Assembly: GCA_964494885.1 (NCBI GenBank) | Contig: CAZBTH010000001.1 | Coordinates: forward strand, 46,319 to 110,318 | DNA: 64,000 nucleotides | Origin: an uncultured Gammaproteobacteria bacterium | Lineage (GTDB): Bacteria > Patescibacteriota > Microgenomatia > UBA8517 | Direction: 5' to 3' | Part shown: piece by piece, positions 3,355 through 52,907 of the stretch | Layout: the number at the start of each line of letters is the position of its first letter | How positions within the stretch are numbered: the first letter of the stretch is position 1 | The notes under the pieces: model-generated | Told to the model about the DNA's origin: nothing | Seen by the model: only the letters and a program-made list of their open reading frames with translations | The model's database searches: none | Translations under genes and position numbers: made by a program

Positions 3355-6300
3355 TCAAGTCACACTTTGAATCTTCGCGGTTTCCAAGATGTCAGCTATC
3401 CCCTTGGCCAATGTCTCGTTCCAGGATATCTGAAAGGGTAATTTGACCTTTTTGACTCTTTTTTCCCCTCCGCTGGCATCAAAAAGCAAATAAGCGTACT
3501 GGTCTCCTAGATTGTTGGTTAATAGCTCCTTTAGTCTTTTAAGTGAATTGGCATCGGCATTACCAGGTATCTTGATAAAAACATCTCGCTGTTTTTTCTC
3601 GTTCAGACTACTTAAAGTCTCGATATTTTCTACGAGAATTGAGGGTGTTTCATCTCTAAAATCTACTTTTCCCACCACAAGTAGGGGTTTACCGGCGAGC
3701 CAAAAATCACGAGTTGATTTGAATATTTTTGGAAAAACCACCAAATCAATTTGTCCTGTACCATCATCTACCTTAACAAAAGCCATTTCAGCACCCGTTT
3801 TTTTTGTAGTTATTATTCTTACTTCATTGATAACTGCAACAATCCTTACAAGGTCAGAGAAATACTCCTCGGGTGTGATTTCAAAGATTTTATGTGTTGA
3901 TTGAAACTCCAATGGACCCACAAGTTCACTAATAGGTTTTGCTGTCAGGGAAAATCCCAAAAGTTGCCGCTCGAGGGACTCCAGTTCATCGTCTCCAAAC
4001 TCTTGAATATTTTCTATCGTGATGACTGAGGCCGCCTCGGTTTTTTTTAGGTCTCCCGTCGCAAAAAGTCCCTGTTGATTGTCGTCTCCTTTGGGTTTTG
4101 CTACCTTTTCCCTTATTTTATCAATTGATGCCAAAAGAGTAGATCTCCCTCCAAACATTCCCATCGCTCCAACTTTAATCAAACTTTCCAAAACTTTTTT
4201 ATTAACTTTTCTGGCATCGACTCTTTCCAAAAAGTCAGCAAACGATTCGAATTTTCCTTCCTTTCTTGCAGTTAAAATAATATCTATCGCCACCTCTCCA
4301 ACGTTTTTTACTGCGGAGAGTCCGAATCTTATTGCTCCGTCTTGAATTGTAAAGCCGATACTACTCTCGTTTATGTCAGGCGGTAACACTTTTATTTTCA
4401 TTCTTCGACATTCGTTTATAGCCATTGAAATTTTGTCTTTGTCTGAGGCTTCAGCTGTCAGAAGAGCCGTCATATACTCAACCGGGTAGTTAGCCTTCAT
4501 ATAAGCCGTATAATAGGCCACAATGCCATAGGAAGCCGCATGAGCCTTGTTAAATCCGTAAGATTGAAAAGGCTCAAATAGTTTCCAGAGCTCTTCAGCG
4601 AATTCGGCAGTTTGGCCATGTTCAATCGTTCCTTTAACAAATTTGTCTTTTTGGGCCGCCATTTCTTCCGGAATTTTCTTTCCCACTGCTTTTCTAAATT
4701 TGTCAGCTTCTTCCCATGTGTATCCGGCTAAGTCTATCGCACAGAAAAGTAAATCATCCTGATAAACTATCAATCCATAACTTGCACCCAAAAATTTTTC
4801 CATTCTCGGGTCAAGGTACTCAACTAATTTCGGATTAGATTTCCTTTTGATATATTCAGGAATAACTGCAATGGGCCCAGGACGATATAAAGCAACCATC
4901 GCCATGAGGTCTTCCACACGGTTGGGTTTAAGCTCTTTTAGATATTTTGTCATTCCTCCACCCGCAAACTGAAAAACACCCATTGTTTCTCCGCGGGCTA
5001 ACATTTCAAATGTTTTCTTATCTTCTAATGAAATTTTATGTAGGTCGATTCTGGTGCCGTAGGCCTTTTCTACGATATCTATTGCCGAACCCAAAATTGC
5101 TAAGTTTCGAATACCCAGAATGTCGAATTTTATTAAACCAACTTCCTCTGCAGCATGCATTTCATACTGGGTGATGATTTTTTCACCCGACGGCTCGCGC
5201 TGAACTGGTGAAAAATCCGTTATATCGGTCGGCGCAACCACAACCCCGGCGGCGTGAACCGACACGTGTCGCGCCGACCCCTCAACTTGCATAGCTAAAT
5301 CCAAAACCTTTTTTGTATCAGGATCAGTTCCATAAAGATCCCTAAGATTGGGTGTTTCTTCGAGCGCTTTGGAAATAGTTATTGGAAACCCCTGTTTTGG
5401 GGGAGGAATCAATTTTGCTATTTTGTCCCCCACATTGTACGGATAACCCAACACTCTCGCAACGTCACGCACTGCAGCCCGACTTAACATTCTTCCGAAA
5501 GTGCAGATTTGTGCAACATTGTCTTTACCGTAAGTTTTTGTTATATATTCAATGATTTGGTCACGTTTATCGTCAGCTACATCAAAGTCAATATCCGGTG
5601 GAGAGGGCCTAAATGGGTTCAGAAATCTTTCGAAGGGCAAATAATATTTAAGCGGATCAACCGTCGTGATACCCAAGACGTAAGACACTAAGCTTCCGGC
5701 AGCTGAACCTCTGGTGTTTTGGATTATCCCGTGTTCTCTCGTCCATTTTGCCAAATCCCGAACTATGAGAAAATAGGCGGAATAACCTTTGGTTGAAATA
5801 ATGTCAAGTTCATGTTCTAATCTATCTAACGCGGTTTTTCCTCCATCGGGAAGTTTTTCTTTTAATGCCTCATGTGCCAGACTGCTCAGTTGTTCATCTG
5901 CAGTGACCCCCTCCGGTAGAGGAAATTTGGGGAAAAACCATTTTCCAAGTGTTATTTCAACGTTGCACTTTTCGGAAAGTTTAACCGTATTTTCTAAAGC
6001 GTCGGGATAATCCGGAAAAAGTGCCTCCATCTCCGAAGGGCTTCTAAGATAAAAGGTCTGGGCATCAATATACCTTAAGCGTTTTGTTTCACTCATGTTT
6101 TTGCCGGTAGCTACACATACCAATGCATCTTGTGCCATCGCATCTTCTTGTTTAATATAATGGGCATCGTTTGTAGCCACGAGAGGCACTCCATATTCCC
6201 TGCTAAGTTTTATTATTCCTTCATTCCACTTGTTCTCAGTTTCTTGAAGTTCGTTAAGGGTGCTTTTAATTTCTGCTGTCGGGGCTTTTGTGAGCCACTT

Positions 6301-14003: not shown

Positions 14004-14023
14004 CTGTTATAATACACACTATT

Positions 14024-14297
14024 GGGGTCGTAGCTCAACTGGCTAGAGCGCTTCCCTGTCAAATGTGGCAGCTCCTAGTAGTAATATTAGGATGAAAAAC
14101 CGGGCTAATTCGGGGAAACCCCAATCGAAGTCGAAGGGTAATCCCGAGCTAAACTCTGATTAAATCGGAGAAATGTGTAGAGACTATACACCCGGCGTCC
14201 TGAGTGAAATCGAAGGATGATGAGATAGTCCAAGCTTTTTGGAAACAAAAAGATTTTCGCACGGAAGAGGTTGCGAGTCCGAATCTCGTCGATCCCG
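14024..14297 (+). tRNA. tRNA-Asp (GUC) interrupted by a group I intron (exons 14024-14059 and 14260-14297)
   Basis: Exons fold as acceptor GGGGTCG/CGATCCC plus G73, D-arm GCTC..GAGC, anticodon stem CTTCC/GGAAG, loop CTGT|CAC, T-loop TCCGAAT. The exon U before the intron and the intron-terminal G fit group I splicing. Confidence 0.75.
14060..14259 (+). ncRNA. Group I self-splicing intron (IC3-like) in the tRNA-Asp anticodon loop
   Basis: Conserved core GUGUAGAGACUAUACACC (P7 5' strand, very close to the Azoarcus/Anabaena tRNA introns) and GAGAUAGUCCAAG (P7 3' strand). P9 hairpin CUUUUUGGAAACAAAAAG. The internal guide GGCAG pairs with exon CUGU|C. Terminal G at 14259. Confidence 0.7.
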
Positions 14298-14413
14298 CCC
14301 CAAATTCCCATTGACTTCGGTTTGATCATAGTCTAAATTCAGGCTAACTTCGGTGCTACCAAAAAGGGTGGCTTGCCCCCCGAAGCTTCAGCGAAGGGGG
14401 GTGAATTTATTTG

Positions 14414-40415: not shown

Positions 40416-40443
40416 TTGACAAAAGAATAATATAGGCTATAAT
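40416..40443 (+). promoter_or_regulatory. Consensus sigma70 promoter (TTGACA-16-TATAAT) for the GC-rich inserted gene
   Basis: TTGACA 40416-40421, TATAAT 40438-40443. The -35 lies in a 9-bp inverted repeat (ttgtcaaga / tcttgacaa) that also supplies a TTGACA for the divergent rpmA promoter. Confidence 0.55.
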
Positions 40444-40503
40444 TCTGGCCTAATACGCATCGTGCGTAAATTCCTGAGTTTGCACATAAAAAAGGAGAAT
40501 AAG

Positions 40504-41046
40504 ATGCTCGATTTAAGCAATTTGACCGGTGCTAACGGCACCAAGTTCGTGATTCATCTGGAAAACCAGGCAGATCTGGCAAAGATTGAGCACCAATTCC
40601 ATGACAATGCCTCGCTTTTGGCTTTCGTCCAGGATGGTGCGGATTTTGATCTCGGCGGTTCCAACCTCGGCCCGGACAAGATCGTGCACGCCATGTTCGC
40701 TAAAAATCGGCGCGTGACCTACCTGACCGAAGAGAAGTACGTTGAATGGGCGAAAACCGGCGATTGGCAAAATGTCGACCCCGATGGCGACAATGAACCC
40801 GAAGCGAGCCTTAATGATGTCCTGTCAATGCTCCTCGGCGGTGGCAGTCATTCGAATTTCACGGGTCCGACCGATGATCAAATCGCGAAATACGCCAGCA
40901 ACCCGACTGCTCAGATGATCAGTGGCGAGGACGCAAACTGCTCTTTTTGCCTTCGGCCTACTGGTGGCTGCATCGGTCGTGACGCTTCGTTCGACGAAGC
41001 CGCTTTCGACGCAGAAATTCTCACGCGCAAGGCTGCATTGAACTAA
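40504..41046 (+). CDS. GC-rich (~52%) acidic protein of unknown function, apparently horizontally acquired
   Basis: ATG 8 nt after AAAAAGGAGAA. The track ORF begins at a TTG at 40462. Composition is clearly different from its neighbours. LSMLLGG double-Gly-like segment followed by a Cys-containing C-terminus. Confidence 0.6.
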   Translation: MLDLSNLTGANGTKFVIHLENQADLAKIEHQFHDNASLLAFVQDGADFDLGGSNLGPDKIVHAMFAKNRRVTYLTEEKYVEWAKTGDWQNVDPDGDNEPEASLNDVLSMLLGGGSHSNFTGPTDDQIAKYASNPTAQMISGEDANCSFCLRPTGGCIGRDASFDEAAFDAEILTRKAALN

Positions 41047-41072
41047 CGAATTACTTCTTTTATTGTTATTCC

Positions 41073-41136
41073 GCGGCTGGAACCAAAGTGAATGTTCACA
41101 AACATTTACCCAAAAGTTCCAGCCGCAAGATTTTTC
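41073..41136 (+). terminator. Compound hairpin plus U-run terminator of the GC-rich gene
   Basis: GCGGCTGGAAC ... GTTCCAGCCGC (11-bp stem) enclosing an inner hairpin AATGTTCACAAACATT, then AAGATTTTTC. Confidence 0.5.
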
Positions 41137-48131: not shown

Positions 48132-48800
48132 TCATCTTAATACCGCATTTTTAAAACGCAAGTCAATTTCGGAATATTTTCCGATATTGCCTGGTTCACT
48201 AATCTTAGAGTATATCAATCTCAAGCTTCCAAGCAAAATGTTAGAATCTCCGTACAATGGAAATATTACTCTGATTTGTGGTAGGAGTTCAACAACCAAA
48301 CTCTCCGAATTCATTTCACCGGTCCTAATTTGATACATTTGAAAAACACCTGCAATTATTTTAAGTGCAAAAAAATCTCTATCGGTAATCCTTTGACCCT
48401 CCTTTCGATCGATTGAATCTGCTGTCACGGTCGGAAGAGTTGAGTCTGATCCGAAAAATAGTATTTTTCCCTCCTCATCAATCAGGGCAACTTTCTTAGA
48501 ATTTCTGTCAACCAAGGCTGCAAAAGGTTTTTTTACAACTATGTAAGTTTCCAAAATATTGGGCAACTTAAACTGCAAACTGTAATTCGAAATTGTGAAA
48601 TCGGAAGATAGTATTTTTCTTATATTTTTCTTGGCAGTGAATAAGCTATTACCGTTAAAGGCGTCAATCTTAGATAAAACTCTTTCGGGACAAGCACCAA
48701 ACTGGGTTTTACAATTTATTTTGACCTTGATGAAAAACGGAGAGAGAAATATAAAAACTAAACAAACTGATATTAAAATAAACAGAAGTCTTTTTGTCAT
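48132..48800 (-). CDS. ftsQ: FtsQ/DivIB-like cell division protein
   Basis: N-terminal TM plus POTRA-like region; position between ftsA and murG. Confidence 0.55.
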   Translation of the reverse strand: MTKRLLFILISVCLVFIFLSPFFIKVKINCKTQFGACPERVLSKIDAFNGNSLFTAKKNIRKILSSDFTISNYSLQFKLPNILETYIVVKKPFAALVDRNSKKVALIDEEGKILFFGSDSTLPTVTADSIDRKEGQRITDRDFFALKIIAGVFQMYQIRTGEMNSESLVVELLPQIRVIFPLYGDSNILLGSLRLIYSKISEPGNIGKYSEIDLRFKNAVLR

Positions 48801-49903
48801 ATATAGTTCTTTACGAGATCAACAACCTTTTTGGAAGCTTCTGTATCCGGACTGTGGGTTCCTTTTGCTTTTCGAATTAGTTCGGGCCAATCTTTTAATA
48901 AACGGTTAATTTCTTTGAGAATTGTTTCAGGTGTGGCATTCTCTTCCAGAAAAACAGAGGAAAACCCAAAGCTTTCTGCATACCTGGCATTTTTTACTTG
49001 CTCTCCCAGAAAAGTTCTCGGGAGTGGAATTAATATCGCAGGACGCTTAGCATAAATAATTTCGGAAATAGAGTTCGCCCCGGATCTACTAATAATTAAA
49101 TCTGCCTGAGAGTAATAATTTCCAATTTCTGAAGGATTGATTGACCGATAAACTTTATAATTTTTTCTAAGGGTCGGTGACAATTTTTCTTTAAACTTCT
49201 CTACTTTTTCAAAATCCCTCTCACCTGTTATGTGTATTAGAACATTATGAGAGAGAACCAATTTTAATATATCGATCACTAACTCATTAATAAAGTTGGA
49301 ACCACGCGAACCTCCAATAACCAATATTATTGGCGGTCTTCCCGGAAATTTCTTGGCTCTTATATTTAAGATATTCTTCATCAATGGGTTTCCAGTAACT
49401 ACCGATTTATTTTTTGGAAAATATCTTTGACTTTCCGGTCTGGCCAATGCAATTTTTGTTGCAAAAAAGGCCGAAGAAATAGATGCGCGACCGGCTACCA
49501 CCGTCTGCTCATGTAAAATTACAGGGATTCTAAAAACCCACGACCAAAAAATCACAGGAAATGAGGAGTAACCACCGAAAGAGAGAGTCACTTTGGGTTT
49601 AATTTTCAACAGTAACCAAAAGGCCTGGAAAAAACCAACTGGAATTTTAAGCAAAGATGGAATAGTGTGTCTTGTAAATTTGGTCTGAATTTTTCCGGCA
49701 ACAATTGGAACAAAGTTGACATCGATTTTTGGAAAAGTCCTGGACTCAATTGTTGAGGCTTTAGAGCCCTCAATAGCAGTTTGCGAGCCGATCCAATAGA
49801 TTTGAACCCCTTTCAACGATTCACGTCTCCTGATTTCTTCAACAACGGCAATCCCCGTTGTCGCCGCATGTCCGCCTGTTAAAAGTATCGTTTTTGAATT
49901 CAT
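48797..49903 (-). CDS. murG: UDP-GlcNAc:lipid I GlcNAc transferase MurG
   Basis: LLTGGHAATTGIAV N-terminus; GT28 C-terminal GGSRGS motif. Confidence 0.85.
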   Translation of the reverse strand: MNSKTILLTGGHAATTGIAVVEEIRRRESLKGVQIYWIGSQTAIEGSKASTIESRTFPKIDVNFVPIVAGKIQTKFTRHTIPSLLKIPVGFFQAFWLLLKIKPKVTLSFGGYSSFPVIFWSWVFRIPVILHEQTVVAGRASISSAFFATKIALARPESQRYFPKNKSVVTGNPLMKNILNIRAKKFPGRPPIILVIGGSRGSNFINELVIDILKLVLSHNVLIHITGERDFEKVEKFKEKLSPTLRKNYKVYRSINPSEIGNYYSQADLIISRSGANSISEIIYAKRPAILIPLPRTFLGEQVKNARYAESFGFSSVFLEENATPETILKEINRLLKDWPELIRKAKGTHSPDTEASKKVVDLVKNYI

Positions 49904-50202
49904 ACCTACTTTGAATTATAGACTATTTGCCAAAAGTCTTCATTTTTAAAAAAAGTATCCCATAGACTTGACTTTTTAATGTGGTGGTGGTACCATTAGC
50001 CTCGGCAAATTGTATAAACATAGGTTTATTTTGTAACTTATAGTTATAGGCTTGCTTTTTCTATTTTTTCGCTCTTTTGCATACAAAATAGCCTCATTCT
50101 ACTGCACCACAAGCTCACTAGCTTAGCGGGTTTTTGGTGCAGTAGTTTTAAGCACAGATGTAATCAAACTCTGTTTTTTCAATCTTGCTTAAGGAGGCAA
50201 AG

Positions 50203-50997
50203 ATGACTAAGAAGAATGTTACGTTCGATCTGAGTGGTAGTTCAACTCTCACTCTCAAAAACCTTTTCGCGCAGGTGACTGTTCGTAAAGGCTCGACTGG
50301 CAAAGCTTCTGTGGAAGTAAGCGGTGAAGATGAAGTGATCAAAGAGATTAAAGTCACACAGCCCAACTCCAGTGAAGTTTTGATCGAAGGCCCGGACAAC
50401 GGAGGTGGTGGTATTACTGTAGTCCAAAGTGGTCGCAGCTCATCCATCTCAGTTCGTGGAAACGACGTTGTCGTCGGTGGAAACATTGTCGGCGGACGGA
50501 TCATCAGCGGAGGAAATGTCGTTATTGTTAACGGCAAAGTTATCTCCGGACAGGTAACGGAACTTGGTGGCGCAGAAATGGCTTCCATCACCGTGACTGT
50601 TCCCGAAGGAACTGAACTTGACGCTGAAAGCGTTGAAGAACTCAATTCCCAAGGTCTGAATGGAAAACTTTACCTTTCGCTCGATGTATCGGGAAAAGCC
50701 AAAGTACTGGACGTAACCAGCGCAAAGATCGACTGCAGAGGGCAGACACGCGCCGAACTCGGTAATGCCAAAGGAGACCTCAAGGTTTCCTGCAGTGGTC
50801 AATCACGCGTTACAGCCAAAGGCAACTTTGGGGATATTGATATGGACGCAAGCGGTCAATCTCAAATCCAGGTCGCCGGAAATTGCAGGGACTGCGAAGG
50901 CAGCGCAAGTGGTCAAAGCACAATTTCGCTCACCGGCCATGCATCTGGCAAAGTTCGCAAACACGAAAGTGGCCAGAGCAGTGTCGATATCGAATAG
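50203..50997 (+). CDS. DUF4097/DUF2807-like beta-repeat protein ('putative adhesin' fold), GC-rich (~50%)
   Basis: ATG 7 nt after TAAGGAGG; repeated Gly-rich beta-strand units (VVVGGNIVGGRIISGGNVVIVNGKVISG). Confidence 0.6.
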   Translation: MTKKNVTFDLSGSSTLTLKNLFAQVTVRKGSTGKASVEVSGEDEVIKEIKVTQPNSSEVLIEGPDNGGGGITVVQSGRSSSISVRGNDVVVGGNIVGGRIISGGNVVIVNGKVISGQVTELGGAEMASITVTVPEGTELDAESVEELNSQGLNGKLYLSLDVSGKAKVLDVTSAKIDCRGQTRAELGNAKGDLKVSCSGQSRVTAKGNFGDIDMDASGQSQIQVAGNCRDCEGSASGQSTISLTGHASGKVRKHESGQSSVDIE

Positions 50998-51021
50998 TCA
51001 TTGATTCAAGCAAAAGGGAAG

Positions 51022-51062
51022 CCTCTCATTGTAGAAATACAAAACAATGGGAGGTTTTTTTT
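51022..51062 (+). terminator. Intrinsic terminator of the DUF4097-like gene
   Basis: cctctcattg ... caatgggagg followed by tttttttt. Confidence 0.7.
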
Positions 51063-51064
51063 GG

Positions 51065-51840
51065 CATAATCGCTTGCAAGGTGTCACCTTTAATGCTATC
51101 ATAAATTATGCCCAGTCGCAACATCGTAAAAGTTTATCTTGAAAACGGTTATTACCATATTTACAATCGAGGGGTTGAGAAAAGAACTATCTTTGTAGAC
51201 GAACAAGACTACAGGAGCTTTTTAAAATATTTGAAAGAAAGCCTTTCCTCTCCGTCCGACCTTAAAACAACTACCAAAACTTTTAGCGTTCGAGGTGTCA
51301 CCTTTGACGCTACACCAAGGCTCGTTAAAAACTTCGACAAAAAAATTGATTTAATGGTTTATTGTCTTATGCCAAATCATTTTCATCTTCTTGTAAAACA
51401 AAGCGAACATATGGATATAAATAAATTCATACAGTCTATATGCACCAGATACTCGATGTACTTCAATAAAAAATATAAAAGGATTGGCAAACTTTTCCAA
51501 GGATCCTACAAAGCAATTCTTATAACGACCGATGAATACCTATTACACCTTTCCAGATATATTCATCTAAACCCGGCAGAATTTACAAAAGATCTTGCAA
51601 GTGCCTACTCTTCATATGCAGAGTATATAGGCATAAGAAAAACGAGCTGGGTTAAGACCAAGGAAATTTTGTCTTATTTCAACAAAACGAGTAAGGATTT
51701 TAAAAAACGAGCAAATACATATCGCGATTTCGTCGAAAAATATCAAACAGACTTGGGACTAACTTTGGATAAATTAACTCTCGAAGAGTAGGTGCCTTCA
51801 AGTGCATTCAAGGTGACACCTTGAATGCTAGCGCTTTGCA
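51065..51840 (+). mobile_element. IS200/IS605-type or REP-associated tyrosine (HUH) transposase unit, flanked by REP-like hairpins
   Basis: Flanking related hairpin repeats caaggtgTcacctttaatgctatc (51072-51104) and caaggtgAcaccttgaatgctagc (51793-51836); the right copy forms a perfect 25-nt hairpin gcattcaaggtg-a-caccttgaatgc. Confidence 0.6.
51108..51791 (+). CDS. tnpA: HUH Y1 transposase (IS200-like TnpA / RAYT)
   Basis: HuH motif LMPNHFHLLV and a downstream catalytic Tyr region (GSYKAIL). Confidence 0.7.
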   Translation: MPSRNIVKVYLENGYYHIYNRGVEKRTIFVDEQDYRSFLKYLKESLSSPSDLKTTTKTFSVRGVTFDATPRLVKNFDKKIDLMVYCLMPNHFHLLVKQSEHMDINKFIQSICTRYSMYFNKKYKRIGKLFQGSYKAILITTDEYLLHLSRYIHLNPAEFTKDLASAYSSYAEYIGIRKTSWVKTKEILSYFNKTSKDFKKRANTYRDFVEKYQTDLGLTLDKLTLEE

Positions 51841-52907
51841 TTTTCGTATGATCTAAACTTAGATATATTCAAGAGTATTCCGCATGCAGTAAGTATCATC
51901 ACCAAACTTGTTCCTCCATAAGATAAAAACGGCAATGGTATACCGGTCAAAGGCGTAAGTGACACCATGGAAGCGATATTCAAAAACGCCTGTCCGGAAA
52001 TCCAAGCAACAATGCCGATTGCAAGTACCTTTGAAAATTTGTCGGGTGCTCCCTTCGCTACCCTGACTCCCCTGATAAATAAATATATATACAAAGAAAT
52101 AATAACGATCGAACCAATTAATCCCAACTCTTCTGCAATGACTGCAAAAATAGAATCAGTCGAAGCCTCAGGTAAAAACGAATATTTTTGTCTGGAAGCT
52201 CCCAAACCTACACCAAATATTCCTCCAGACCCCAATGCTAATAAAATTTGCCTAATATGGTAACCCTTTCCCAATGGGTCGCTTGTTGTTTCAAAAAAAG
52301 TAAGAAGTCGATCTCTTCTGTAGGGTGAAACAAGAATTAGAACAATAGTGCTCAATGCGCCAATTACCATGGCACCAAAAAAATGTAATAAATTGACCCC
52401 TGAAATAAAGATTTGTGAAAGTCCGATTGTAGCCACCACCAAAGTCGTTCCCAAATCCGGCTGTAACATGATTAAACCGGCCACAATAGCCAAAGGAACA
52501 AAGTACGACGCCGGCCCTTTGTTTTTGGCGGCAATCTTTGCTAAATAAATAGCAAGGCTGAGTTTGACCAACTCAGAAGGCTGGAAGTTAAAACCAGCAA
52601 TCGAAATCCACCTTCGGGCACCGAGAGCCGCAAAACTTAAGTGTGGCAGTAAGACTGCCAAGAGGAATAACACCGAAAGAAAAAAGAAGGGAGTCGCAAC
52701 TTTTTCCCAAAACGAATAATGTACATGCGCAGTGGCAAAAAGTGCAACAACCCCAATAGCGGCCCATACAACCTGTTGACGAAGAAGGAAAAACTTATCT
52801 CCATAAGCATTCAACGCCTGGGGAGCTGAAGCATCGGCGACTGCAATCAAGCCTATTACCACAAACAAGAGTATCAACCAAAAAAATTTCTTATCAATCT
52901 TTTTCAT
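51828..52907 (-). CDS. ftsW: SEDS family protein FtsW (paralogue 2, next to mraY)
   Basis: SEDS topology; conserved PLPFLSYGGTS motif. Confidence 0.8.
   Translation of the reverse strand: MKKIDKKFFWLILLFVVIGLIAVADASAPQALNAYGDKFFLLRQQVVWAAIGVVALFATAHVHYSFWEKVATPFFFLSVLFLLAVLLPHLSFAALGARRWISIAGFNFQPSELVKLSLAIYLAKIAAKNKGPASYFVPLAIVAGLIMLQPDLGTTLVVATIGLSQIFISGVNLLHFFGAMVIGALSTIVLILVSPYRRDRLLTFFETTSDPLGKGYHIRQILLALGSGGIFGVGLGASRQKYSFLPEASTDSIFAVIAEELGLIGSIVIISLYIYLFIRGVRVAKGAPDKFSKVLAIGIVAWISGQAFLNIASMVSLTPLTGIPLPFLSYGGTSLVMILTACGILLNISKFRSYENAKR

Follow-up and report, generated by a model that had tools for sequence, protein, structure and literature searches.

What lies between murG and ftsW in this genome, where did it come from, and did its parts arrive together? 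In the stretch of contig CAZBTH010000001.1 analysed here (64,000 nt, hereafter the window), these two genes of the division and cell-wall (dcw) cluster are separated by two plus-strand genes, as a first, sequence-only reading of the window had noted. One gene (50203–50997) encodes a protein of Pfam family DUF2807, and the other (51108–51791) is a RAYT/IS200-like Y1 (HUH) gene. The sequence-only reading took the pair for a GC-rich cassette "inserted with a HUH transposase", and every feature that it named was found again at the same position or a few bases away. The results of this study suggested that 50061–51051 is probably a horizontally acquired single-gene expression unit in a lineage-variable slot, for which use of a resident promoter, entry by recombination and a scaffold role of the product are proposed.

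The window organism, an ultra-small groundwater bacterium, belongs to Candidatus Woesebacteria (Microgenomates, Candidate Phyla Radiation (CPR)/Patescibacteria). Its MurG was 81–82% identical to MurG of the Woesebacteria metagenome-assembled genomes L014 and L015 (82% for L014), and contigs identical to the window were found in groundwater metagenomes. A metagenome scan with a MurG alignment confirmed at least two relatives. L015 is the complete Woesebacteria chromosome CP066686.1, L014 represents the same lineage as L021–L027, and L043 is GCA_000995365.1.

Foreign cargo at the ftsW-murG junction

In L015 and L020, ftsW directly abutted or overlapped murG, with nothing between them. Compared with this empty site, the window carried about 1.95 kb of extra DNA (49883–51832). 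The ftsW/murG overlap in L015 was 17 nt (ATGCAAAGCATTAA, L015 5986–6014). In the window, the old murG start persisted at the end of ftsW (51828–51845), and a new ATG with the first codons of murG (about 20 nt, 49883–49903) was supplied by the inserted DNA. The claim that the plus-strand pair is an insertion between ftsW and murG was thus borne out by the two empty sites. A synteny comparison, one of the checks proposed with the sequence-only reading, found the DUF2807 gene in the same place in none of the five related Woesebacteria loci examined (L014, L015, L016, L020, and L028), although their flanking genes were 66–82% identical.

Other cargo was found instead. The slot of L014 encoded a 174-aa internally duplicated membrane protein, and that of L028 a 77-aa open reading frame (ORF) and an 84-aa DnaJ-type CXXCXGXG zinc-finger protein. 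The cargo of both had a GC content of 0.52–0.56 and a GC content at third codon positions (GC3) of 0.57–0.62, in hosts of 0.39–0.40. L016 (5620–6036) carried an insert of about 380 bp without a RAYT gene; its AT-rich ORF of 102–138 aa lay on the strand opposite to murG and had no Pfam or PHROG match. Five junction states were therefore seen: four different insert contents and one empty site. Homology between the window and L014 stopped at 50060/50061 and resumed at 51051/51052. The left breakpoint was independently confirmed by L029, whose alignment with the window started at 50056.

Two side observations concern this region. In L028 (3946–4045), an insert of about 95 bp that is absent from the window and L014 separates the start of murG from the slot promoter. 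It ends in inverted repeats (CACAAGTTT / AAACTTGTG), has a hairpin inside (CATTCCCGTGAACGCGGGAATC), and looks like a miniature inverted-repeat transposable element. Several independent metagenome assemblies of the same organism (L004–L006 and L036–L038) broke within a few hundred bases of this cassette and of a second GC-rich cassette at 40.4 kb: the start of L006 lies 241 nt before the ATG of the DUF2807 gene, and L036–L038 ended 227 nt upstream of rpmA. These breaks may reflect strain-level heterogeneity.

The composition of the DUF2807 gene was foreign. ORFs 50203–50997 and 40462–41046, one from each cassette, ranked as the top two of the 60 window ORFs in both GC and GC3. The former had a GC content of 0.497 against 0.392 for the window, close to the 50% noted before. 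Each protein was then recoded with host codon frequencies, and z was calculated against that expectation. The GC3 of the DUF2807 gene was 0.46, whereas its protein written in host codons would give 0.34 (z = 4.2), and the z of the gene for GC was 5.2. Host genes in the GC3 test had a standard deviation of 1.33 and a maximum of 2.7. The proposed GC and codon comparison with the genome thus found both cassettes deviant (GC3 z = 4.2 and 7.0).

A native gene could in principle owe its high GC to Gly/Ala/Val/Ser-rich repeats or to expression-linked codon bias, with no transfer. About half of the GC excess did stem from amino-acid content (expected GC 0.445 against 0.392 for the genome), and in almost all genomes the homologue exceeded its host in GC content. 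However, codon choice was still off after the correction, the ribosomal-protein and ftsZ genes in the window had an ordinary GC3 of 0.31–0.39, and the gene was missing from all five relatives despite their similar flanks. A native origin is very improbable, as it is already contradicted by synteny and by the codon-corrected statistics.

The distribution of the gene was patchy. Its homologues formed only 32 clusters among 5.8 billion protein clusters. The homologue loci L007, L008, L009, L011, L013, L029, and L031 lay in unrelated neighbourhoods, none of them in a dcw cluster. A search for the nearest taxonomic neighbours had also been proposed, and the named hosts of the homologues were other Patescibacteria (Collierbacteria and "Patescibacteria group bacterium"). 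In L029, the cassette DNA (leader and ORF) was 77.6% identical, aligned over 50056–51016, in an unrelated context with a flank GC of 0.32 and no RAYT gene downstream. Most gene transfers into Patescibacteria come from other Patescibacteria, i.e., from within the phylum (PMC12455944). Composition and distribution together support a foreign origin of the DUF2807 cassette by horizontal acquisition. The cassette resembles the genomic islets and individually transferred genes of Patescibacteria (PMC12455944) in its apparent transfer between Patescibacteria into a streamlined genome, visible by composition and patchiness. It differs from them in that one gene sits at a recurrently used junction in the conserved dcw cluster, and in that promoter and terminator modules are common to unrelated cargos of different genomes.

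The ratio of nonsynonymous to synonymous substitution rates (dN/dS) between the DUF2807 gene and three homologues was 0.09–0.16. A ratio of about 0.1 argues that the gene is functional and under purifying selection. An antisense ORF of 165 aa (50148–50645) was rejected, as dN/dS and the family alignment favoured the plus-strand frame.

The encoded Toastrack protein

The 264-aa protein matched Pfam DUF2807 (PF10988) at residues 75–262 with 30.1 bits (cutoff 24.2, E = 4.9e-7), and a precomputed PF10988 match was present in 22 of the 32 listed homologues. In the Pfam search of this protein, DUF4097 (PF13349) gave no match at E ≤ 1. DUF2807, DUF4097, and DUF2154 have been united under the name "Toastrack", a domain exemplified by 4OPW and 4QRK (10.1101/2020.09.24.301986). 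Since both DUF2807 and DUF4097 are Toastrack families, the earlier name "DUF4097-like" was correct for the superfamily, but the family according to Pfam is DUF2807.

An AlphaFold2 model built from 30 homologues had a predicted local distance difference test score (pLDDT) of 81.5, with a low-confidence, Gly-rich region at residues 67–120. Foldseek matched the model with probability 1.0 to 3LYC, 3LJY, 4OPW, 4QRK, and 3PET (E = 1e-5 to 1e-3, TM-score 0.3–0.55), all of them solved "putative adhesin" β-helices. A search of PDB sequences with the family-alignment profile gave no match. In the 30-member alignment, all family members started with M-(T/D)-K-K-N, and no member had a signal peptide, a transmembrane segment, or a lipobox. 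An alternative TTG start at 50185 was unsupported, as the family alignment begins at the ATG (50203).

The predicted single-stranded β-helix, which matches solved structures of the family, and the DUF2807 match above cutoff are shared with known Toastrack proteins (LiaG, the LiaF C-terminus, YvlB, 4OPW, 4QRK, 3LJY, and 3PET). In contrast to these, the window protein stands alone, neither fused to nor encoded beside PspC, LiaI-LiaF-TM, or SHOCT, and it has the Gly-rich low-confidence middle. Its subfamily, moreover, is tiny and patchy within Patescibacteria (the 32 clusters) and moves as a monocistronic unit. The model suggests that the product is a stand-alone cytoplasmic Toastrack β-helix; the lack of signal peptides and transmembrane segments fits an intracellular domain. 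The Toastrack domain has been argued to be intracellular and to act as a scaffold for sub-membrane signalling complexes in envelope-stress systems (10.1101/2020.09.24.301986). By analogy with this proposal for the superfamily, the most likely role of the protein is that of a scaffold for protein-protein interactions close to the membrane.

The Pfam DUF2807 annotation, the nearest structures, which are Bacteroidales "putative adhesins", and the influence of PGN_1547 on adhesion and biofilm formation (PMC10949514) would also suit a surface adhesin. This alternative to an intracellular scaffold is improbable. None of the 30 family members has the signal peptide, lipobox, or transmembrane helix that would suit a surface protein, the Toastrack study argues that the domain is intracellular (10.1101/2020.09.24.301986), and the TM-scores to the Bacteroidales proteins were just 0.4–0.55 at 8–12% identity.

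Predicted expression signals and shared modules

The slot leader, 157 bp next to murG, was about 80% identical in nucleotides to L014 and L028. A 35-nt block within it was identical in the window, L014, and L028. The block contains a predicted promoter directed into the slot (TTGACT-17 nt-TACCAT, TG-extended as TGgTACCAT, 49968–49996), just preceded by the element CCCATAGAC at 49960. The L029 copy of the cassette has its own near-consensus promoter, which lies upstream of where homology to the window starts. It is therefore probable that a promoter of its own was lost from the window cassette, which would now be served by the resident slot promoter.

The leader signals described by the sequence-only reading were all recovered. 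The 10-bp inverted repeat upstream of the ORF (TACTGCACCA at 50100–50109 and TGGTGCAGTA at 50135–50144) forms a hairpin that folded at −27.2 kcal/mol (z = −7.4 against shuffles). Its arms were identical in the L029 cassette, where the loop differed, and the hairpin was absent from L030 and L007. The strong Shine-Dalgarno sequence is TAAGGAGG at 50190–50197, 5 nt upstream of the ATG. The proximal leader (last 55 nt or so) was about 95% identical to L029 and L030, while the synonymous substitution rate (dS) of the ORF was 1.17. Such conservation next to saturated synonymous sites argues for a constrained regulatory leader. In the predicted minimum-energy fold, GCCUC (50091–50095) pairs with GAGGC in the ribosome-binding site (RBS). 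An Rfam search of 49900–51900 at a relaxed threshold gave no credible RNA family, with a chance microRNA match at E = 0.19.

The intrinsic terminator noted before was likewise found, with stem arms at 51022–51031 and 51045–51054 (one G-U pair) and eight T at 51055–51062. It folded at −24.5 kcal/mol (z = −5.5 against shuffles). A simple scan missed it because that scan permits loops of 8 nt at most, and the loop here has 13 nt. Transcription would most likely start at the conserved resident promoter, common to all three slot variants, and end at this terminator. With such a terminator, the cargo, which is antisense to the division genes, would be insulated from them.

Parts of these signals recurred elsewhere. 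The pattern C[CT]ATA[AG]N1-2TTGAC had nine distinct sites in the window and the loci examined (about 224 kb of distinct sequence; Table 1). All nine lay upstream of cassette-type genes and were directed at them; five belong to DUF2807 homologues, one each to the window slot, L014, and L028, and one to a further, unrelated unit of L009. The 8–9 nt element C[CT]ATA[AG]N1-2 abuts the −35 sequence TTGAC of near-consensus extended −10 promoters. At the other end, a 3' tail (a T-run and TTGGCAAAA) was found behind the terminators of three independent cassette types; GGCATAA after the window terminator is a variant of the TTGGCAAAA tail. The cassette 3' hairpins themselves were unrelated in sequence. 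Two promoter-gene-terminator units stood in tandem in L009 (5140–6830). The product of the first has 174 aa and a CXXCXGXG zinc finger at its C-terminus, and that of the second is a DUF2807 homologue; next come a series of small hypothetical genes and an XRE-type helix-turn-helix gene. The promoter and leader of the first unit resembled the window slot promoter (z = 6.6). The cross-locus pattern results were more telling than the motif counts within the window, but cover just three cassette types that are independent of each other. The modules in common are treated as a lead, because several of the loci are homologous and the independent observations are few. Within the window, the boundary motifs were not significantly enriched (TTTNTTGGCAWAA, 9 matches against 4.3 expected; TTTGCAYWTWAA, 2 against 0.5).

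The second GC-rich cassette (40.4 kb) was also present in contigs of the same organism. Its predicted promoter, TTGACA-16 nt-TATAAT at 40416–40443, agrees with the consensus at 12 of 12 positions. ORF 40504–41046 (180 aa) has a strong RBS and is followed by a long hairpin at 41073–41126 (z = −6.0). The GC3 was 0.61 against 0.365 expected. The family of this ORF had 25 remote homologues of about 170 aa among 1.84 billion representatives, with invariant residues G12, H18, W82, W88, C146, C149, C156, R159, and F163, which possibly make up a zinc site. The AlphaFold2 model had a pLDDT of 87, and Foldseek gave no PDB match at E ≤ 0.001. A 194-aa neighbour of the DUF2807 homologue in L008 was rejected as a relative of this ORF (BLASTP E = 12). 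PADLOC gave no defence-system match for either cassette protein, the RAYT-like protein, or the cargos of the sister slots.

The codon deviations of the two cassette genes correlated at r = 0.81, the highest pair of host genes reaching 0.64; part of this correlation arises because both genes are GC3-rich. The statement that composition and signals of the two cassettes match therefore held for codon direction and self-contained architecture, and failed for the promoter, which is different, and for the surroundings, as the 40.4-kb cassette has no RAYT nearby and no CCyATAAC element. Support exists for a donor-type composition common to both cassettes. The shared source or route that the sequence-only reading had suggested for the two is compatible with the codon data but not shown by them.

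The RAYT-like gene and a proposed route of cargo exchange

The 227-aa protein matched Pfam Y1_Tnp with 48.8 bits (cutoff 23, E = 9e-13), in agreement with its description as an IS200/RAYT-type protein. The HUH motif (H91-F-H93) and Y151 in RYIHLNP were invariant in 12 family members. The match to the RAYT NCBIfam equivalog NF047646 was 43.8 bits, below the cutoff of 80, and that to the IS200 family NF033573 was 14.7 bits, below the cutoff of 55. The gene had native composition (GC3 z = 0.3). Orthologues at the same site were 86–87% identical in amino acids in L014 and L021–27 and 83–84% in L028, so that the protein diverged in step with its neighbours (MurG, 82% to L014). Because of this native composition, and because the gene holds the same site in two sister lineages with unrelated cargo, the RAYT insertion predates the present cargo. 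The results indicate an old, vertically inherited resident rather than a recent vehicle; a score below the IS200 cutoff, native composition, and an orthologous position in three lineages do not describe a recently mobile IS200/IS605 element. The claim that the cassette was inserted with the HUH gene thus held at most in part, and homologous DUF2807 cassettes elsewhere and the 40.4-kb cassette likewise have no adjoining RAYT gene.

Three palindromes accompany the gene (Table 1), and no further copy was found in the 64-kb window. Palindromes flank the RAYT-like gene likewise in L014, L028, and L043. In the L043 paralogue (56% identical), the three sites are laid out alike, but the palindrome is another one (TACCTTGCAAGG-tttct-CCTTACAAGGTA), and in L028 lineage-specific substitutions were common to its palindrome copies. 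This amounts to co-variation of the flanking hairpins with the in-ORF one. The peptide encoded by the in-ORF hairpin was the most variable part of the protein, the rest of the 12-sequence alignment averaging 70% column identity. To our knowledge, co-variation of the flanking hairpins of a Y1 gene with a hairpin inside its ORF is undescribed.

The family is a highly conserved Patescibacteria family of more than 8000 clusters, and a related genome holds two paralogues, 86% and 56% identical to the window protein. RAYTs and IS200/IS605 TnpA likewise are Y1 HUH proteins in which HUH and Tyr are conserved, with palindromic hairpins on both sides of the gene, and native composition and apparent vertical inheritance with the neighbours agree with RAYTs (PMC5581495). 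The window protein differs from RAYTs and IS200 in its scores below both NCBIfam cutoffs at 227 aa and in the co-varying third hairpin inside the ORF. At least two divergent paralogues occur per genome, and no dispersed repetitive extragenic palindromic copies were found in the 64 kb covered.

How, then, did the cargo enter? A RAYT/IS200-like Y1 (HUH) element would first have inserted between ftsW and murG in the ancestor of a small clade of Woesebacteria, and the slot between murG and this element would then have taken lineage-specific cargo. The swap most likely proceeded by uptake of DNA from other Patescibacteria and homology-assisted or illegitimate recombination; transposition by the RAYT-like protein is less likely. 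Such an event, gene transfer within Patescibacteria that leaves a moron-like islet, would be of a known kind; what is new is the variant, in the architecture of the slot and the modules in common.

The RAYT-like enzyme might itself capture and exchange cargo. The slot would then serve as an active platform for cassettes, in analogy to an integron or ISCR element, with Y1 cutting near the left hairpin and joining single-stranded cassettes. Three unrelated GC-rich cargos occur in three lineages, in each case directly 5' of the left hairpin of the RAYT and downstream of one and the same resident promoter; for this adjacency the idea was kept, as an unlikely one. The right breakpoint (51052–51069) lies 3–20 nt from the hairpin foot, and the left-end cleavage offset of IS608 is similar. 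Unrelated cassettes of different genomes also share the 5' element and the 3' tail. However, there is no palindrome copy at the left edge of the cassette, breakpoints vary between lineage pairs, and L016 bears its other small insert at the same junction without any RAYT; the DUF2807 cassettes in L007, L008, L009, L029, and L031 and the 40.4-kb cassette have none beside them. It is accordingly doubtful that a domesticated Y1 HUH enzyme and a promoter-equipped slot form a cassette-exchange platform, an HUH-based functional analogue of the integron, in which the enzyme would read its own hairpins, including the in-ORF one, and the units would be marked by CCyATAAC-TTGAC on the 5' side and T-run-TTGGCAAAA on the 3' side. 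The likeness to integron cassette platforms lies in a fixed outward-facing promoter, interchangeable and mostly promoter-less foreign ORFs, and a neighbouring gene for a DNA-breaking and -rejoining enzyme. It is architectural only: there is no IntI and no attI/attC, each slot holds one unit, and the breakpoints lie at no single fixed site. No tyrosine-recombinase gene was found among the ORFs listed for 47.5–54 kb.

Phage morons, left by prophages or moved by phage-mediated transfer, are also independent promoter-gene-terminator units. Like them, the units here have predicted signals for independent transcription (an own or resident promoter, a strong RBS, and a terminator) and deviant composition, lie between conserved genes, and encode products not needed by the neighbours. 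The L014 cargo weakly matched PHROG phrog_2169, "moron... membrane protein" (E = 6e-5), sister-slot cargo also matched PHROG zinc-finger families annotated as anti-termination protein Q-like (E = 1.5e-12), and the L009 tandem units stand at the edge of small hypothetical genes including the XRE-type regulator. A phage origin is nevertheless hardly probable. The slot lies in a bacterial chromosome between dcw genes, with no prophage and no phage structural, integrase, or replication genes near it, and neither the DUF2807 protein nor ORF 40504 had a PHROG match. A tblastn search with the DUF2807 protein against 50,697 phage records and 72,556 plasmids gave no match, nor did IMG/VR pattern scans for the DUF2807 protein and ORF 40504; the mobile-element database searches returned two distant RAYT relatives only.

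The reading of 50061–51051 as an acquired expression unit in a variable slot, with its proposed promoter, route and role, has several points against it. Use of the promoter and terminator is predicted from sequence. No donor with near-identical DNA was found, the nearest copy being 77% identical. Between L014 and L028, homology extends 28 nt further in the leader and 67 nt further at the 3' end, where it takes in the terminator, than between either of them and the window. Such nested, non-identical breakpoints make recombinational replacement more likely than site-specific insertion, and exchange of the cargo by recombination inside the slot is inferred from them. Only three lineages, each with a different cargo, bear on the order of the slot events. 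For the product, other DUF2807 proteins have been reported as surface adhesins (PMC10949514). No PspC, LiaF or LiaI partner gene was found near the Toastrack gene, here or in any homologous locus, and PspC, LiaI-LiaF-TM, two-component, or HAAS-PadR partners did not adjoin the gene or its homologues, the neighbours here being murG and the RAYT-like gene. An envelope-stress role is therefore only extrapolated from the superfamily.

Table 1. Positions of the features discussed (window coordinates unless a locus is given; intergenic and promoter signals are predictions)
Feature	Position	Strand	Remarks
murG	48797..49903	-	Pfam Glyco_transf_28 in identical contigs
Conserved slot leader	49904..50060	+	common to three RAYT-bearing lineages; missing in empty-site relatives
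Lineage-specific cassette (structured leader, RBS, ORF, terminator stem)	50061..51051	+	homology breaks against L014, L029
5'-leader hairpin	50100..50144	+	10-bp arms, 25-nt loop with inner stem
Proximal leader	50146..50202	+	second predicted hairpin ends at RBS TAAGGAGG
Toastrack (DUF2807) gene, 264 aa	50203..50997	+	ATG start
Intrinsic terminator	51022..51062	+	10-bp stem, 13-nt loop, T8
Left palindrome	51072..51096	+	GCTTGCAAGGTG-T-CACCTTTAATGC, 25 nt, just before RAYT ATG
RAYT/IS200-like Y1 (HUH) gene, 227 aa	51108..51791	+	Pfam Y1_Tnp
In-ORF palindrome (third copy)	51286..51312	+	peptide FSVRGVTFDATP, codons ~60-68; -14 kcal/mol, z = -4.6
Right palindrome	51804..51828	+	perfect 12-bp arms, abuts ftsW stop codon; -15.8 kcal/mol, z = -4.2
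ftsW	51828..52907	-	Pfam FTSW_RODA_SPOVE in identical contigs
40.4-kb cassette	40416..41130	+	between rpmA and rplU, antisense
Sites of C[CT]ATA[AG]N1-2TTGAC	window 49960-49996; L007 1667; L008 5897; L009 5140, 5872; L014 5945(-); L028 4093; L029 38; L031 800
L043 palindromes	3963-3992, 4176-4204, 4685-4712		paralogue copies

Elsewhere in the window, a group I intron (Rfam RF00028, 90 bits, 14044–14252) interrupts a tRNA gene at 14022–14299. In intron mode, ARAGORN read the gene as tRNA-Asp(GTC) whose intron measures 200 nt; the exon junction is ambiguous, and so is the identity of the tRNA that follows from it.

Foreign accessory genes are repeatedly taken in and exchanged even at a junction within the most conserved operon of a CPR bacterium with an ultra-streamlined genome (about 1 Mb). 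The shared promoter and terminator modules in unrelated cargos point to a common pool of portable expression units among Patescibacteria, and are candidate genetic parts for organisms without genetic tools. The co-variation of hairpins in a large conserved Patescibacteria Y1 family is directly testable in vitro. The Toastrack domain is widespread but uncharacterised, and a stand-alone, mobile Toastrack protein under purifying selection offers a simple test case for the domain outside the Psp and Lia systems.

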